Source of the DNA: Candidatus Doudnabacteria bacterium
GTDB taxonomy: Bacteria > Patescibacteriota > Doudnabacteria > UBA920 > O2-02-FULL-48-8
DNA: 64,000 nucleotides
Direction: 5' to 3'
Assembly (NCBI GenBank): GCA_016186915.1
Contig: JACPKU010000006.1
Span: 249,619-313,618, forward strand
Below the pieces are notes generated by a model. It did no database searches. It was not told where the DNA came from and saw only the letters and a program-made list of their open reading frames with translations. A program made the translations under genes and the position numbers. Positions within the stretch are counted from its first letter, which is position 1; the number at the start of each line of letters is the position of its first letter. Positions 17,130 through 62,970 of this stretch are shown here, in pieces.

Positions 17130-17981
17130 TTAAGTCGCTAATATTAATTCCGACAAAACAAGCTTCGCATTAAGATTCTGTTCAATGAATCTGCGCGCTC
17201 TGCTCACCAGTCTGAGTTTATTGGCCAACTCCGGCTTCCCGGTGAGGTTGAGATCGCGCTCAAGCCGGACCAGCCAAAAATCCAACAACGTTTTGATCTC
17301 GGTCGTTTCCTGTCCCGCAATCTCTTGAGCCAGAAGCAGTCGGTCGATTCTTTCTGCTTGATTAAATGTTTGATAAGACAAGCCCCAGCTTTCAAGTTCT
17401 GTGAAGTTTTCAGGATCCGCCAAAACTTTTTTAACCCAACCAGGACGGCCGGCCGCCACTGACGAAATTAGATCTTTTTGGTCTGCCGAAAGCGTAGCCG
17501 GCACCAAGACCTTGAGCTCATCCTCTCCTACCAGCCCAAAATTAATTTTTTGCGTGCGGCTGATAATTGTTTTAGGCAATCGCTCCACCGAACTAGTAAC
17601 AAGGATGATCACGGTATTGGGTTTTGGCTCTTCCAAAGCTTTGAGCAAAGCATTGCTGGCTTCCAAGGTCATGGTCTCAGCCCGATCTATCAGCGCAACT
17701 TTATATTCAGCCGAATAAGGCTTAAGCGATAATTTGTAAATCAACTCTCGGATCTTTTCTATCTTTATCCCTGCTTCGTCTTCTATCAGTAAAAAGTCTG
17801 GATGAAAATAATTTTCGAATGAAGGAGGATCAATCAGAACTTTCGCCAGCCATATCCCCACCAATTTTTTCCCCACCCCTTCGGGACCTGCAAAAATATA
17901 AGCGTGCGGCACCCTGTCTTTTGCAATAGCACGCGCCAACATATCTATTTGCCTTTTGTGTCCTACAATTCCTTCAAGCAT
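17130..17981 (-). CDS. holB: DNA polymerase III delta-prime subunit
   Basis: AAA+ fold. Likely start is MLEGIVGH; Walker A is GPEGVGKK. Confidence 0.7.
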   Translation of the reverse strand: MLEGIVGHKRQIDMLARAIAKDRVPHAYIFAGPEGVGKKLVGIWLAKVLIDPPSFENYFHPDFLLIEDEAGIKIEKIRELIYKLSLKPYSAEYKVALIDRAETMTLEASNALLKALEEPKPNTVIILVTSSVERLPKTIISRTQKINFGLVGEDELKVLVPATLSADQKDLISSVAAGRPGWVKKVLADPENFTELESWGLSYQTFNQAERIDRLLLAQEIAGQETTEIKTLLDFWLVRLERDLNLTGKPELANKLRLVSRARRFIEQNLNAKLVLSELILAT

Positions 17982-18084
17982 ATCAGTTATTATACCATTT
18001 TTCAAATAGATAACAAAACTTTTTGGCCCCAATCTAAATAGAATGCTATTATAAATCATCTAGGTCTAGCCACAAGGAGGAAAG

Positions 18085-18369
18085 ATGACTATTTGGGACA
18101 ATGCTACACCCGAACAGATTCTCGACCGAGTCAAGGCAATCGTGGCACCACATGGCTTAAACGCCGAATTTCTCGAAGGGATCCTGTCCGTTGGCGTTCA
18201 AGGGGACGATCGTACCTACACTCCCGTCGTGGTCCTGAACGGGCCGCATCCGGGCTGGGAAATCCTGGAGAGGCTTTCATCACAAATCTCCAACGAAACG
18301 CCCGTGAACCGAGTCACGTTCGAGGTTGCCACTCGGCCCACGACGCTCTCAAACCGGCGAGCGCGATAG
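18085..18369 (+). CDS. small GC-rich ORF homologous to the GMP synthase C-terminal dimerisation domain (gene fragment)
   Basis: SVGVQGDDRTYTPVVVL and ISNETPVNRVTFEVATRPTTL match the GuaA C-terminus (SVGVMGDGRxYDxVVxL and [26 protein letters not shown]). RBS AAGGAGG. Terminator at 18399-18430. About 55% GC. Confidence 0.55.
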   Translation: MTIWDNATPEQILDRVKAIVAPHGLNAEFLEGILSVGVQGDDRTYTPVVVLNGPHPGWEILERLSSQISNETPVNRVTFEVATRPTTLSNRRAR

Positions 18370-18398
18370 AGACTGAGTAATTGCGCAGGCAGAACTGC

Positions 18399-18430
18399 CC
18401 CGTCGACACTCGCTATCGACGGGATTTTTT
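18399..18430 (+). terminator. intrinsic terminator CCCGTCGA...TCGACGGG plus T-run
   Basis: Seen in the sequence. Confidence 0.6.
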
Positions 18431-18472
18431 ATATTAACAAATTACTACAATACAAAATAAATTCACGCAAAC

Positions 18473-18549
18473 AAAAAAACCAGCCCTGACCTAACGTCGG
18501 GGCTGATTTTTTACGCGTTACATTTCTTGTACAAGATTTAGGCTTAACC
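18473..18549 (-). ncRNA. candidate small RNA (about 77 nt) with promoter TTGACG-N17-TATGAT (18556-18584) and a bidirectional terminator (18473-18512)
   Basis: Promoter and terminator seen in the sequence. Internal palindromic hairpin UCUUGUACAAGA. Confidence 0.3.
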
Positions 18550-18694
18550 TTAACTATCATAAAATTGCTAAATCTTCACGTCAATAAATTTGTATTTCCT
18601 AAGATTTAGAAGGATTGTGTGCATATTCTCTGGAAAACTGCTGGATAAATTGTACATTACCAAAATTTTAAGATTTGATTTCTAACTTTTGCAT

Positions 18695-18935
18695 TAAAAA
18701 AATCACTAAAAAGTGATTTTTTTATAGACCGGTGTGCTGCTGATTTTGTTCTACCACTCTCTTACGAACCTAGCAGAACCCAGGGACCGGGTCCAAGAGG
18801 TTGCCCTTACTTGTTTTACACCTAAGCCGTTTCTTGCTTAAGCGAACCCTTGATCAAAACCTGCATCTCCTGATCCTCCGAACAGCCTTGCAGCTGCCCG
18901 CTCCGCCTAAGTTGCCTCAAACGGAGACCAATGGT
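18695..18935 (-). ncRNA. candidate sRNA (about 240 nt) between the promoter TTGACA-N17-TAAAAT (18942-18970, minus) and the terminator ATCACT-AAAA-AGTGAT plus U-run (18695-18717)
   Basis: No plausible ORF; the promoter hexamers are consensus. Identity unknown; 6S-like or SRP-like assignment untested. Confidence 0.35.
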
Positions 18936-19059
18936 GAATGTATTTTAGAAATTATTAAAATCAGTGTCAATAAATTTTAAAAACCCAGTTTTTATTAAAC
19001 TTTTGATAAATCCTGTGCATAACCTGTGCTTAACCTTGGGGATTAATTGTGAGTTTCTT

Positions 19060-19500
19060 ACTAAAAAAGAGGCTCGCAAGCAAGGCTTACAAGCCGAAGA
19101 ACGAGGAGGGGAGCAGATCAACCATCCAACCGGTAGCCCTTGTTAAGGCGGCCAGATGGTCAAATCAGTCCCCTCCACCCCGCAGCGCTGACAGCGCTGT
19201 GTTTGCAGCGTGTCTCGTCCGGGCCTTGGGCCTCGGGCAGAGCCAGCCGCTGGGAACTTGTTGTTTCCTCCGAAAAATTGTAGCGGACAGGGAGTTTGGA
19301 TGGTTGAGGCCGGGCCAGCGGAATCAACCAGCCTCCCTCCCCATCCTGTCGGCGCCGAGCGTGTCAACTGGCGCCGAGCTTGTACCGAGGGGATGCGCGC
19401 GCGTAGGGCCAGTAGCAGCCCTTTAGCGTGGCCTTTGTTGCGCACTCACCCCCTCGGACCGCGCTTGTCCAGAAAGGCCCCAGCCCCTCGGACTTGCGCG
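19060..19500 (-). ncRNA. GC-rich (over 60%) structured non-coding segment of about 430 nt; candidate RNase P RNA, strand uncertain
   Basis: No credible ORF; many GC helices. On the minus strand AAG-U-CCGA (near the 5' end) is complementary to UCGGCUU (near the 3' end) with a bulged U, as in the P4 helix of bacterial RNase P RNA. It ends in a U-run. A GGUUGA...UCAACC hairpin is also present. Confidence 0.35.
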
Positions 19501-19583
19501 ATCTTGAGAAACCCAAACCAAAAAAACTTACCTGTCTTTGGTAAGTTATTATATATTTCAAATTACCAAACTGTCAATAGATT

Positions 19584-20600
19584 TTATTTTGTTGCCAAAA
19601 TACTTTTTTTATAGCTGTCCAAATTGTCCAACGCCACCCCTGTGCCGGCAGCCACGCATAAAATAGCGTTTTCAGCCACGTAAGCTGGAACTCCGGTAGT
19701 TTGGCCAATTAACTTGTCGATATTTCGCAAGAGCGCGGTGCCGCCTGTCAAAACCATGCCCTTATCAATTATATCCGCGGCCAGCTCAGGCGGAGTTTCT
19801 TGCAGGACGGTTCGGACTGCCTGGATGATTTCCCGCAGTTCTTCCTGAATCGCTTCCACGATTTCATTGGTGGAAATTTTAATCGTTTTGGGAAGCCCCT
19901 GTATCAAGTCCCTGCCTCGAATTTCAAGCTTGGTCTCTTTCTCCACTGGTATGGCCGAGCCGATCTTAATTTTAATATCTTCCGCAGTCCGGTCTCCCAC
20001 AGCCAAGCCGTGCTTGCGGCGGATATATTCTGCGATGGCCTGATCAATCTTGTTGCCCGCCACCCTCACAGAAGTCTGGGTCACAATCCCGCCAAGTGAA
20101 AGCACTGCCACGTCCGTGGTGCCGCCGCCAATGTCTATGATCATGTTGCCAGAAGGATTCGCGATGTCTATCCCAGCGCCGATAGCGGCGGCCACGGTTT
20201 CTTTGATTATGTAAGCGGCTTTGGCCCCGGCCGCGTGCGCCGCGTCAATCACCGCTCTTCTTTCAGTGGAAGTGATGCCGCCGGGTACGGAGATCATAAC
20301 TTCAGGGCGAAAAAATCGGACATTGCCCGTGGCCTTGTTAATAAAATACCGAAGCATAGCTTCTGTCACCCGGTAATCTGCAATCACCCCGTCCTTCATA
20401 GGTCTGTGCGCCACGATTGTGTCAGGAGTGCGGCCCAACATATCCTTGGCTTCCTGTCCCACGGCCAAAATCTTATTGTCAACTACAGAAATCGCCACCA
20501 CTGTGGGCTCATTAATAATAATGCCCTGCTTGGGCACGAATACTAAGGTGTTGGCAGTTCCTAAATCTATTCCAATTTGCCGTAAAAACAATCGAGCCAT
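19584..20600 (-). CDS. second MreB/Mbl-like actin homolog
   Basis: GIDLGTANTLVFV; 338 aa; a paralog of 10872..11930. Confidence 0.85.
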   Translation of the reverse strand: MARLFLRQIGIDLGTANTLVFVPKQGIIINEPTVVAISVVDNKILAVGQEAKDMLGRTPDTIVAHRPMKDGVIADYRVTEAMLRYFINKATGNVRFFRPEVMISVPGGITSTERRAVIDAAHAAGAKAAYIIKETVAAAIGAGIDIANPSGNMIIDIGGGTTDVAVLSLGGIVTQTSVRVAGNKIDQAIAEYIRRKHGLAVGDRTAEDIKIKIGSAIPVEKETKLEIRGRDLIQGLPKTIKISTNEIVEAIQEELREIIQAVRTVLQETPPELAADIIDKGMVLTGGTALLRNIDKLIGQTTGVPAYVAENAILCVAAGTGVALDNLDSYKKSILATK

Positions 20601-23188: not shown

Positions 23189-24433
23189 ATGACCCTCAAA
23201 ACCCGCTTTACATTAATCGGCATTGGCATCGTTATTTTCTTAATAATTGTGCCGCCTTTAGTTTTGTTCGCCAGTGGTTTCCAAATTGACTGGTCAAATT
23301 TCGCAATCGTAAAAACCGGAACTTTGGTGGTAGAAACCGAGCCCGGCAAAGCGTTGGTCTACCTTAGTGACAAGAAACAAAGAGGAGCAACGCCTTCCAC
23401 GATCCGTTTTTTGCTTCCCAAAGATTATCAAGTCAGGATCGAGAAACCAGGTTACCAGACCTGGACCAAACGGCTGTCTGTCAAATCCCAGCTCGTGACT
23501 TGGGCTAACCTCAACCGCAAATTTATCGCCTTATTTTTATCTGAGCCACTGCCTCTGGTGGATTTTAGCTCTGACCAAACTTTTCTCTCTTCCGACCAGA
23601 GAGAGCTTGTCTTTTCGGTAAACGGCGAGTTTTTTTTCCTCTCTGCAGGCTCTGAAAAACCTGTGAGCTTGGGTCCGGCCACTGCTCTGGCTCCTCCGTT
23701 TGAATTTAATGCCGGACTGGTTTGGGATAACGGACAAAAAGTATACGAAGCGCTAAAAAAATTCTCCGAAATAAATTTGTCGATCTATTCCCCAACGCCA
23801 AAAATATCAACCAACGGCACCTTCACAATTCTGGCTTCCGCTGATCAACTTTGGCTTGTGACTTCTTCAGGCACAGAAGTTATAGCCACTGACATCGATG
23901 CTTATCTATTAGAGAATGACATTTTGTGGTTTATCAAAAATTCCTCGCTGCAAAGCCTAAATCTCACAACCAAGGAATTGCGAACCGTAAAGCAGGACTT
24001 GCCACGCTTTAAAAAAGGCCAAATCATTCGATCGAGCAATTATGTTTTTCTACTCCTCGATGGAGACTTATACTTTGCCAACGAAAGTTTAGATAAAATT
24101 GCCCAAGCCGTTGTGTTCAGTTCATGGAATTACGGCGCGGATAAACTGTTAATTGCCACCAACAACGAAATTAGTCTGTTTGATCCGCAAAACCAAAAAG
24201 TCGACCTCATTCACCGCAGTGTAAGTAATATCAGTAACCCTGTATTCAATGCCGAAACCGGATACGTATTCTTCAGCAATGAGGGCAGAATAAAAGCCAT
24301 CGAACTTGATGGCCGGGACCAAAGAAATATTTTTGAATTTGGAGAAGCGGGATTAGGATTTACCTTGTCAAACAACGGAAAACTGCTATACGTTTTCAGC
24401 GATGAAAACATAAGAATATTGGAAATAAGATAG
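23189..24433 (+). CDS. membrane-anchored PEGA-domain plus beta-propeller-like protein
   Basis: N-terminal TM. PEGA-like TGTLVVETEPGKALVYLSDKKQRGATPSTI...KPGYQTW. Repeated beta-strand modules. It is the only large plus-strand gene in the window. Confidence 0.55.
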   Translation: MTLKTRFTLIGIGIVIFLIIVPPLVLFASGFQIDWSNFAIVKTGTLVVETEPGKALVYLSDKKQRGATPSTIRFLLPKDYQVRIEKPGYQTWTKRLSVKSQLVTWANLNRKFIALFLSEPLPLVDFSSDQTFLSSDQRELVFSVNGEFFFLSAGSEKPVSLGPATALAPPFEFNAGLVWDNGQKVYEALKKFSEINLSIYSPTPKISTNGTFTILASADQLWLVTSSGTEVIATDIDAYLLENDILWFIKNSSLQSLNLTTKELRTVKQDLPRFKKGQIIRSSNYVFLLLDGDLYFANESLDKIAQAVVFSSWNYGADKLLIATNNEISLFDPQNQKVDLIHRSVSNISNPVFNAETGYVFFSNEGRIKAIELDGRDQRNIFEFGEAGLGFTLSNNGKLLYVFSDENIRILEIR

Positions 24434-49175: not shown

Positions 49176-49397
49176 ATGGGCAAGGGAAGATTTGCGGAAG
49201 AGATCGAGCACAAGCCGTCATCGCCCGGCCAAGAAATGGTGGATCTCGTGCTCACCTGCGGCATCTCGGCCCTCGCCGGATCTCAGGATACGGTCGAATG
49301 CCGCATCACGGACCACGAGCTTGGCAAGACCTACACCGGCACGGGGAGCACGGAGTCCGAGGCCCGCGATGACGCGCTCGGCAAACTGAATCGCTGA
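49176..49397 (+). CDS. GC-rich 73-aa hypothetical protein with RBS AGGAGG and a terminator
   Basis: About 60% GC. The AGGAGGATCTGATCATG translation-initiation region resembles the AGGAGGATCTCATG of ORF 62309. Terminator GAGTGAG...CTCACTC-T8 at 49420-49457. Confidence 0.5.
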   Translation: MGKGRFAEEIEHKPSSPGQEMVDLVLTCGISALAGSQDTVECRITDHELGKTYTGTGSTESEARDDALGKLNR

Positions 49398-49568
49398 CCG
49401 ACGGGTGGTCTTCGGCGGTGAGTGAGGTTCTGACAAAGAATCTCACTCATTTTTTTTAAAATATATCTCCTTACAACCCCCAGCGAGGGTTTTGGTTTAC
49501 CCGCCGGACTTTCGGGTGCCGATCATTCGACCGGACAAGTGTCTCGAAACGAGACTCGGACTTACATA

Positions 49569-62096: not shown

Positions 62097-62257
62097 ATTA
62101 ATTCCTTAATTAATTACTTATTAATGCTTAATAGATTATAAAGGATTTTTGTCTACCTGTAAAGCTTAAGACAAATAAAAAACCTTGATCTTGGATTTTT
62201 CTCGATCTTCCCCACTATACCAGAAACCCCCAGGCTTGTAAAGAAATGGTAGCCAAA

Positions 62258-62286
62258 TTGCAAAAAGATCCAATAAATACTATACT
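62258..62286 (+). promoter_or_regulatory. promoter TTGCAA-N17-TATACT for ORF 62309
   Basis: Seen in the sequence; the ORF-track start at 62246 lies upstream of the -10. Confidence 0.5.
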
Positions 62287-62308
62287 TTTAGGCAACAAGG
62301 AGGATCTC

Positions 62309-62686
62309 ATGGCAATTGCTTTTACTGTCGTTGCGATCGCTGTTCCCCTGATCGCGTTTGTCCTTGGTGTGTACTTCTACCGAACGCGTCCGAACAGAAG
62401 GTCTGGCGGAGATATCGTCTCCTCTAGAGATCACATCACGGAAGAAAAGGTCCACCGTGCGATGCAGGCTCAGTCCGACCCAGTGGAATGGGAGAGACTG
62501 CTCTCTGAGCTCGAACTACACATCCGGGAATGCAGACAGTGCCACAAGCAATTCCTTCCTTCGGTTCGCGCTGTGCGCCTCTTGCCACCAGGCGAGGTGC
62601 TCCTCAATCTCTCGCCCGAAAACGACCGATGGAACAAGATGGCGCTGGGACTCAACGCCTCTGCCGACGATCGAGCGAACGACTAA
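62309..62686 (+). CDS. GC-rich 125-aa single-TM hypothetical protein (MAIAFTVVAIAVPLIAFVLGVYF...CRQCHKQF...)
   Basis: RBS AAGGAGG. T8 run after the stop. GC-rich relative to the flanks. Confidence 0.5.
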   Translation: MAIAFTVVAIAVPLIAFVLGVYFYRTRPNRRSGGDIVSSRDHITEEKVHRAMQAQSDPVEWERLLSELELHIRECRQCHKQFLPSVRAVRLLPPGEVLLNLSPENDRWNKMALGLNASADDRAND

Positions 62687-62815
62687 CCCCGTCCCTCGGC
62701 CGTCTTTTTTTTATCCTTCCGCCCTTCCTTCTTTTCCACTCCGCGGATCAGGAGAAAAGCGAGGCGTGGATTTTCAGCAGCCTTCGGAGGCCAACACCAA
62801 CTATTTCTGTAGCGA

Positions 62816-62930
62816 GGGATTGTTGCAAAATTAACCTTCGGAAGCCGGTTCGTCCGGCTGAGAAAGTAGGCTGCATCCCGCCGAAGTTCCCACGAGGCGG
62901 GATGACAGCCGATATTTTTGCAACAATCCC
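62816..62930. ncRNA. structured element closed by a perfect 15-bp inverted repeat (GGGATTGTTGCAAAA ... TTTTGCAACAATCCC) enclosing nested and pseudoknot-capable hairpins
   Basis: GCCGG-TTCGT-CCGGC hairpin. GGCTGCATCCCGCC...GGCGGGATG-A-CAGCC helix whose loop CCGAAG can pair with the upstream CTTCGG. No ORF. Confidence 0.4.
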
Positions 62931-62970
62931 GAGCGATGACGACCGGTAATTTACAGTCAGCTCGAGCGAT

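Follow-up and report, generated by a model that had tools for sequence, protein, structure and literature searches.

GMP synthase (GMPS) is a textbook allosteric amidotransferase whose XMP site cannot be built without the dimer interface, or, in the human type, the D1/D2 pseudo-dimer. There are two dimerisation sub-domains in the long-form enzymes, the D1 insertion (residues 450-578 in the human enzyme) and D2, the true C-terminal domain, which together mimic the homodimer interface of the ordinary enzyme (PMC10526850, PMC9312489). The arginine loop by which the XMP site is closed comes from D1, in trans. The D1-bearing type was placed in a eukaryote-only group in a 2022 phylogeny (PMC9312489). 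In the loop Gly243-Glu250 of the M. jannaschii (Mj) enzyme, Arg249 forms salt bridges with the phosphate of XMP and with the terminal carboxylate of the neighbouring protomer, and its human counterpart is Arg524 of D1. Mj Arg294 and Pf Arg539 hold the loop at the neighbour's C terminus (Mj Arg294 by a salt bridge), and mutation at this site abolishes activity (PMC10526850). The archaeal GMP synthase is composed of two subunits, with the GATase and the ATPPase encoded separately (PMC10526850).

When a 64-kb stretch of DNA (64,000 nucleotides, hereafter the window) was analysed, an intact gene for a stand-alone, D1-like GMP_synt_C protein of 94 amino acids was found at positions 18085..18369 of the plus strand, with an ATG start and the stop codon included in these coordinates. 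A Shine-Dalgarno sequence, AAGGAGG, was read from the sequence at 18074..18080 (+), 4 nt ahead of the ATG. The divergent intergenic region of 103 nt between this mini-gene and holB contains a weak sigma-70-like promoter candidate, TTGGCC-18-TATTAT with a TG, at 18023..18052 (+), which is a consensus match only (9/12 in the consensus scan). On the other side, an intrinsic terminator was located at 18399..18430 (+), consisting of an 8-bp G+C-rich stem (CCCGUCGA/UCGACGGG) with a 9-nt loop (stem-loop 18399-18423) followed by A-U6. The 67-nt stretch that holds it (18366-18432) folded with -19.4 kcal/mol (z -2.15), and its absence from the promoter/terminator consensus scan was due solely to the 9-nt loop. 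Transcription of the mini-gene alone would be predicted, running from the divergent holB intergenic region to this terminator.

The genes flanking the mini-gene (rseP, frr, a BNR-repeat protein gene and holB to one side; mreB, murA and murB to the other) are all on the minus strand, and the nearest other real plus-strand gene lies at 23189. The divergent neighbour holB (DNA polymerase III delta'; Pfam DNA_pol3_delta2, E 2e-39) occupies 17130..17981 (-) and is given for context only, its start at 17981 being taken from a 283-aa gene call on identical contigs. The initial annotation had described a stand-alone and apparently expressible mini-gene with its own ribosome-binding site and terminator hairpin, opposite in strand to all of its neighbours and bordered by holB and by a block of RNA-like non-coding sequence, and in all of these respects the description agreed with what was found. 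An overlapping ORF of 95 amino acids (18093..18380) was rejected as a gene, as conservation tracks frame 1 and this ORF is a by-product of the G+C richness.

In a search against Pfam, the mini-protein matched PF00958 (GMP_synt_C) with 31.2 bits (E 2.2e-7), a narrow margin over the gathering cut-off of 27 bits, and several relatives scored below that cut-off. The similarity to GMP synthase proposed earlier was thus significant in a profile search. The NCBIfam GuaA models TIGR00884 and PRK00074 gave 23.7 bits (cut-off 338.75) and 22.9 bits (cut-off 400), respectively, and matched only at positions 236-304 of 310 and 438-506 of 512, approximately their last 70. Both the GATase and the PP-loop ATP-pyrophosphatase are absent, since a protein of 94 amino acids has no room for either. 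The only PDB matches obtained, by sequence and by fold, were GMP synthases. The fold is alpha/beta, built of two main helices and an antiparallel sheet of three strands, and can be superposed on GMPS dimerisation domains of solved structure. By sequence, the closest PDB match was to human GMPS at chain index 497-566, within D1 (30.4 bits), nearly ungapped and with the N-terminal helix included. The mini-protein had originally been aligned with the last 90 residues of GuaA. This placement was not upheld, as the best match is to the internal D1 of long-form enzymes and the terminal XMP-binding loop, KPPxTIEWE, is missing.

Long-form D1+D2 GMP synthases were found to be widespread in bacteria and DPANN archaea (loci L011-L085, e.g. 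L030 6723-8603). The long-form GuaA proteins of approximately 600 amino acids recovered by the genome scan came from Peregrini-, Gracili- and Saccharibacteria, Leptospira, Fibrobacter, Akkermansia and DPANN archaea. In these proteins the match to the mini-protein covers residues ~420-500, which correspond to D1, and ~100-125 further residues (D2) follow it. When the family profile was run on long-form GuaA, D1 scored 37-60 bits and D2 no more than 2.5 bits. Short-form C-terminal domains scored 41-46 bits, but from profile position 26 onward only. The D1 profile outscored the short-form C-domain profile in each of the 63 family members (mean 43.6 vs 25.6 bits), and in 93% of neighbour-joining (NJ) bootstraps the mini-proteins and D1 were separated from the short-form domains. 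These findings indicate that the mini-family resembles D1 more than D2 or the lone C-terminal domain of the short-form enzymes.

Comparison with the D1 of human-type GMPS (residues 450-578, PDB 2VXO) revealed the same alpha-beta-beta-alpha-beta fold, the same VGVQGDxR(S/T)Y loop, including the arginine that contacts XMP, a similarly short connection after strand 2, and likewise no ..TIEWE terminal loop. In contrast, the D1 of long-form enzymes (~600-700 amino acids) is internal to the catalytic chain, lying between the ATPPase core and D2, and pairs with the D2 of the same chain, whereas the mini-protein is a free protein of 94 amino acids with its own promoter region, ribosome-binding site and terminator. 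Its orthologs likewise stand alone, and the mini-family forms its own clade in the NJ tree, apart from the D1 of full-length enzymes. The C-terminal domain of ordinary GMPS (E. coli GuaA, 1GPM; the archaeal ATPPase subunit GuaAB, 2DPL and 6JP9) differs from the mini-protein in that it is fused to a PP-loop ATPPase core, contains an insertion of approximately 12 residues after strand 2 (..RAVxSxDxMTAdw..) and ends in the XMP-binding loop KPPxTIEWE, all of which the mini-protein lacks.

The residues G37 V38 Q39 G40 D41 D42 R43 of the mini-protein fit the G-V-x-G-D-x-R loop (Mj 243-250), and the beta-hairpin loop VGVQGDDRTY (codons V36-Y45, 18190..18219, +) aligned with human GMPS chain index 521-530 (VGVQGDCRSY) and with P. 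horikoshii 240-249. With numbering derived from these alignments, the R43 loop would correspond to the Mj Arg249/human Arg524 site. Similarly, R76 of the NRV on strand beta-3 (codons N75-R76-V77, 18307..18315, +), which aligned with the NRV of GMPS, would be the equivalent of Mj Arg294 and Pf Arg539, counting back from the C terminus. Column counts over 63 members showed that all have G40 and D41, 55 have R43 and 51 have R76 (a further 6 have K there), and V36, G37, V38, L51, G53, L61 and I68 are each at least 90% conserved. At the C-terminal end, ..FEVATRPTTLSNRRAR, a vestigial R-P is the sole trace of the K-P-P-x-T-I-E-W-E loop, and TIEWE was found in none of the mini-family members. These findings indicate that the mini-protein keeps the trans-acting half of the interface and has lost the cis XMP-binding half, exactly like D1. 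Lacking the ATP-pyrophosphatase core, the glutaminase domain and the C-terminal XMP loop, the mini-protein cannot make GMP on its own.

An exhaustive HMMER search of 1.84 billion representatives returned 310 matches, 62 of which were at E 1e-10 or better. The top ~60 clusters (50% identity) were short proteins of 79-240 amino acids scoring 60-125 bits. Fragments of long-form GuaA first appeared at ~54 bits, and full-length GuaA of ~600 amino acids at 51 bits or less. The D1-like domain runs to the C terminus in nearly all of the ~60 clusters. The first word-indexed protein search had recovered four clusters only (78-94 amino acids), and when the family profile was used as the query in a second indexed search, 30-odd further members were obtained (75-153 amino acids), each of them rare (1-6 contigs). 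None of these further members carried a name in its source database, except for two called 'GMP synthase PP-ATPase subunit' by JGI. Scans of genome and metagenome contigs with the pattern VGVxGDxR yielded one further stand-alone member (L009) and many long-form GuaA; full-length GuaA dominated these scans because the sole usable pattern is common to both. In the NJ tree the 63 mini-proteins formed one clade, which was complete in 51% of bootstraps and held at least 58 of the 63 in 70%. No description of a stand-alone D1-type family was found in the searchable literature.

Among the four closest members, synonymous differences were saturated (pS 0.73-0.93), pN was 0.26-0.32, and the two computable pairs gave dN/dS values of 0.09 and 0.15. 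The reading frames of family members are intact. An ortholog in a related genome (P0002 on contig L006) is 65% identical to the mini-protein and occupies the same position, divergent from holB, and identities of 62-78% were obtained for the proteins that flank the two genes. As the ortholog is as diverged as its neighbours, the mini-gene was already at the holB locus in the common ancestor. The ortholog has AGGAGG in the same place as the ribosome-binding site in the window and, by eye, a TTGACA-type site at the equivalent promoter place. Its terminator is a different hairpin with a U-run in the same place (64-nt stretch, -22.6 kcal/mol, z -3.5). These findings indicate that the mini-gene is a genuine, selectively maintained small-protein gene belonging to a conserved, unannotated family, and not the decaying leftover of a GMP synthase. 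The initial annotation had called it a horizontally acquired remnant and a fragment of GMP synthase, comprising its C-terminal dimerisation domain. Of this, the homology stands, and 'fragment' and 'remnant' had to be given up in view of a family of ~60 clusters that forms one clade under purifying selection (saturated pS with pN of about 0.3) and of a syntenic ortholog that diverged in step with its neighbours. What is new here is the conserved stand-alone D1-type family; the domain itself was already known.

The mini-gene has a GC content of 56.8% and a GC3 of 63%, compared to averages of 45.3 +/- 4.3% and 48.7%, respectively, for the 57 long ORFs of the window. Its GC content (z = 2.7), equalled by just 0.9% of the 285-nt windows taken within genes, is the highest of any gene in the 64-kb window and is raised at all three codon positions. 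The odd composition reported earlier (about 55% GC in a genome of about 42%) was confirmed for the gene, and the figure for its surroundings was corrected to 45.4%, the actual value for the window. The GC contents of close homologs and of their own contigs were 55.8 vs 41.1%, 52.8 vs 45.3% and 53.6 vs 49.5%, respectively, and a more distant member from Paceibacterota had no excess (37 vs 38.7%). Because three other hosts, of 41-50% GC, show the excess too, it looks like a property of the gene and not the mark of a recent transfer. A GC3 of 0.54-0.57 is reached in the window by genes that are highly expressed (fusA, two mreB, map and ribosomal protein genes). In view of these values, and because diverged orthologs share the excess, it was rejected as a sign of recent horizontal transfer. 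Horizontal acquisition as originally put forward is also at odds with the 65% identical ortholog at the same locus, whose neighbours are 62-78% identical. An older transfer of the mini-gene may have taken place, since the loci that carry the family differ and one of them is in a phage. When the surroundings of the holB-mreB insert were searched for att-like repeats, only the promoter motif common to the three RNA units described below was detected.

When 25 GuaA sequences were used in tblastn searches for a full guaA in the 64-kb window, only the mini-gene matched. Weak matches at about 43.6 kb and 30.4 kb were rejected as guaA and represent a galT-like gene and pgk, respectively. The window holds neither guaA nor any other PP-loop ATPPase with a GMPS-type C-terminal domain, and no guaA or GMPS-type partner gene was found next to any family member examined. 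Reduced-genome (CPR-type) bacteria, which the hosts appear to be, often lack de novo purine synthesis, and a GuaA partner may not exist.

Pfam searches identified fusions of PurS to D1 in two clusters and of MOSC to D1 in one. In one further member (P0040) the N terminus resembled a PRTase by eye, and Pfam found no such domain there. Other members carry N-terminal domains without assignment or a transmembrane segment. Approximately 10 genomic contexts were read, all on small, housekeeping-dense contigs. Apart from the divergent holB<->mini arrangement of the window and L006, these included secY-[PurS-D1]-adk-adk-map (L089), secY-[TM peptide]-mini-adk-map (L187), trmD-mini (L091), uvrB<->mini-ruvA with a shared stop/start base (L092), and uvrA, uvrB<->lexA-mini with a PurL-like gene 7 kb off (L093, L094). 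A Ham1-like gene was found 4 kb off in another (L186). The last (L188) has a looser version of the rseP-frr-holB-mreB cluster of the window; there holB directly adjoins mreB, so that the 1.6 kb between these genes in the window, which holds the mini-gene and the RNA block, is an insert relative to L188. The PurS-D1 fusion (162 amino acids, L089 1550-2038) and the stand-alone member of L187 (2759-3061) both lie between secY and adk. A 57-aa ORF ahead of the latter was rejected as PurS and is a transmembrane peptide. The window has the same secY...adk-adk-map-htrA order, but with msrB and a G+C-rich stretch in the gap between secY and adk.

A phage contig of 62% G+C (IMGVR_UViG_3300007351_000067, IMG/VR) carries a family member of 80 amino acids (L097 6001-6243; also L098), which was obtained in a viral search with a 25-sequence family alignment. 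This gene lies 4 nt upstream of the gene for the terminase large subunit (phrog_2) and ahead of the portal gene, and the slot just before the large subunit is usually taken by the small terminase subunit. No match to the mini-family was obtained among GenBank phages by tblastn, and nothing below E 0.04 among the BFVD viral structures. PHROGs gave only a weak match to a GuaA-like phrog, and PADLOC gave no match.

Sequence, fold and family data slightly favour the reading that the mini-gene encodes a genuine small protein consisting of a single GMPS dimerisation module of the D1 kind, which would likely act as a docking 'half-dimer'. The three-stranded sheet of such a protein would serve for pairing, with a second copy or with a partner carrying a GMPS-type C-terminal domain, and the arginine loop would be offered to a phosphate or carboxylate of the ligand or the partner. 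It may serve as an accessory or regulatory subunit in purine-nucleotide metabolism, a role that appears most plausible because of the PurS fusions and the adjacency to adk. The hints of a purine-nucleotide link comprise the PurS and MOSC fusions, the N terminus of P0040 that resembles a PRTase by eye, the secY-adk position in two lineages, and the Ham1- and PurL-like genes 4-7 kb off in two contigs. Against such a role, DNA replication and repair neighbours (holB, uvrB twice, ruvA, lexA and the phage terminase) are as frequent as nucleotide genes. The two-subunit archaeal GMP synthase offers a precedent for separately encoded GMPS parts that assemble, although its split lies between the GATase and the ATPPase, and we know of no described system in which the dimerisation module alone is split off. 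PurS (the FGAM synthase subunit, PF02700) is also comparable: it too is small and stands alone, as an accessory protein of an amidotransferase complex in purine biosynthesis, and it is the fusion partner of D1 in two clusters. Its sequence, however, shows no similarity to that of the mini-protein, and the protein of the window has no PurS part.

One sub-case of the docking half-dimer, which we regard as rather improbable, is that the mini-protein is the detached D1 of a split long-form GMPS whose GATase, ATPPase and D2 are encoded elsewhere. The D1-like character of the family, with exactly the residues that D1 contributes in trans, would fit this, as would the two-subunit archaeal enzymes (PMC10526850) and the finding of D1-bearing long-form GuaA in DPANN archaea as well as in related candidate phyla (Peregrini-, Gracili- and Saccharibacteria). 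However, neither the window nor any of the contigs with a family member yielded a guaA lacking D1, each long-form GuaA recovered has a D1 of its own, and the PurS and MOSC fusions and the phage copy beside the terminase are ill-suited to a dedicated GuaA subunit. Somewhat less improbable, though still unlikely, is a generic module for homodimerisation or small-ligand binding outside GMP synthesis, for example in DNA repair, replication control or phage DNA packaging, with the arginines serving a new ligand. DNA-transaction genes do recur as neighbours, namely holB in the window and L006, uvrB and ruvA in L092, uvrA, uvrB and lexA in L093 and L094, and the terminase in L097. Where unrelated N-terminal domains are present, the D1-like domain always follows them at the C-terminal end, an arrangement often seen in oligomerisation modules. 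Yet small genomes are housekeeping-dense, so that these neighbours may be due to chance, and the ~10 contexts are too few for statistics. Moreover, neither fold nor sequence gives any hint of DNA binding, PADLOC gave no match and PHROGs none beyond the GuaA-like phrog, and the invariant GD and the two arginines are those that make the XMP and C-terminal-loop contacts in GMPS.

The reading of the initial annotation, a horizontally acquired and decaying guaA remnant without a function of its own, has become very improbable. In its favour are the highest GC content of any gene in the window, the opposite strand, the location within a 1.6-kb holB-mreB stretch that is absent from the more distant relative L188, and the presence of a C-terminal-type domain only. 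Against this stand strong purifying selection with saturated synonymous sites, the same compact architecture in ~60 clusters of a single clade, the ortholog in synteny that is as diverged as its neighbours and has kept a ribosome-binding site and terminator, and a GC excess that persists across hosts, unlike what recent transfer and amelioration would leave. A family made up of GuaA fragments called as genes at contig ends is likewise not what was found at the loci read, which lie inside contigs and have their own starts and stops. Hardly credible at all is the notion that the G+C-rich stretch is not protein-coding and forms part of the structured-RNA block, the ORF being accidental. The adjoining 1.2 kb does hold three strongly structured promoter-to-terminator units, and a second ORF of 95 amino acids overlaps in another frame, but conservation at the protein level lies in frame 1, the matches to Pfam and by fold are significant, folding of the start region is unremarkable (z -0.06), and there was no Rfam match.

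If the docking half-dimer does pair with an enzyme, it would represent a new kind of detachable subunit or regulator and would provide a handle on the origin of the D1 insertion. A broader proposal, which we advance tentatively and consider unlikely, is that free D1 modules constitute an unrecognised class of trans-acting proteins that dock at the surface used for dimerisation by a PP-loop enzyme, GMPS-type or other, and complete or gate its nucleotide site through the GVxGDxR and NRV arginines. Were this so, the mini-protein would be a detachable regulatory or activating subunit, the phage copy might be a tool to manipulate the guanine-nucleotide supply of the host, and the free modules could be either the source of the D1 insertion that turned dimeric into monomeric long-form GMPS or an escaped copy of it. 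For annotation, such genes should not be named 'GMP synthase' or 'PP-ATPase subunit', nor counted as evidence of guanine nucleotide synthesis in reduced genomes; the JGI name of the two members mentioned above is wrong, as they have no PP-loop domain.

The RNA-like block that adjoins the mini-gene contains three units on the minus strand. The longest, at 19062-19577 (-), has a sigma-70-like promoter, TTGACA-18-TATAAT (12/12), at 19577..19548 and a terminator at 19095..19071, and its ~470 nt of ~60% G+C folded with -237 kcal/mol (z -6.6 vs shuffles). It is likely an undescribed structured RNA, with no match in Rfam. The second, at 18695-18970 (-), has the promoter TTGACA-17-TAAAAT (11/12) at 18970..18942, an RNA of ~235 nt with a minimum free energy of -90 kcal/mol (z -5.6), and a perfect 13-bp bidirectional terminator at 18695-18724; it likewise had no Rfam match. 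The third, at 18478-18593 (-), is a ~70-nt unit with the promoter TTGACG-17-TATGAT and a bidirectional terminator at 18481-18505. The three promoters share an extended motif, TAAAATTTATTGACA, which forms a direct-repeat family. Rfam models detected nothing in the whole 64-kb window at gathering thresholds and nothing relevant in 17900-19800 at E up to 5, and ARAGORN found no tRNA or tmRNA gene in the whole window. Two other regions of the window were also conspicuous. The G+C-rich patch at 49176-49446, between secY and msrB/adk, has overlapping small ORFs on both strands, including a plus-strand ORF of 73 amino acids, and forms another compositional island in an otherwise minus-strand operon. 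Approximately 870 nt separate tuf from fusA (62097-62970), an unusual spacing for a str operon, and this gap holds a G+C-rich (55%) ORF of 158 amino acids at 62358..62834 (+) with no Pfam match.
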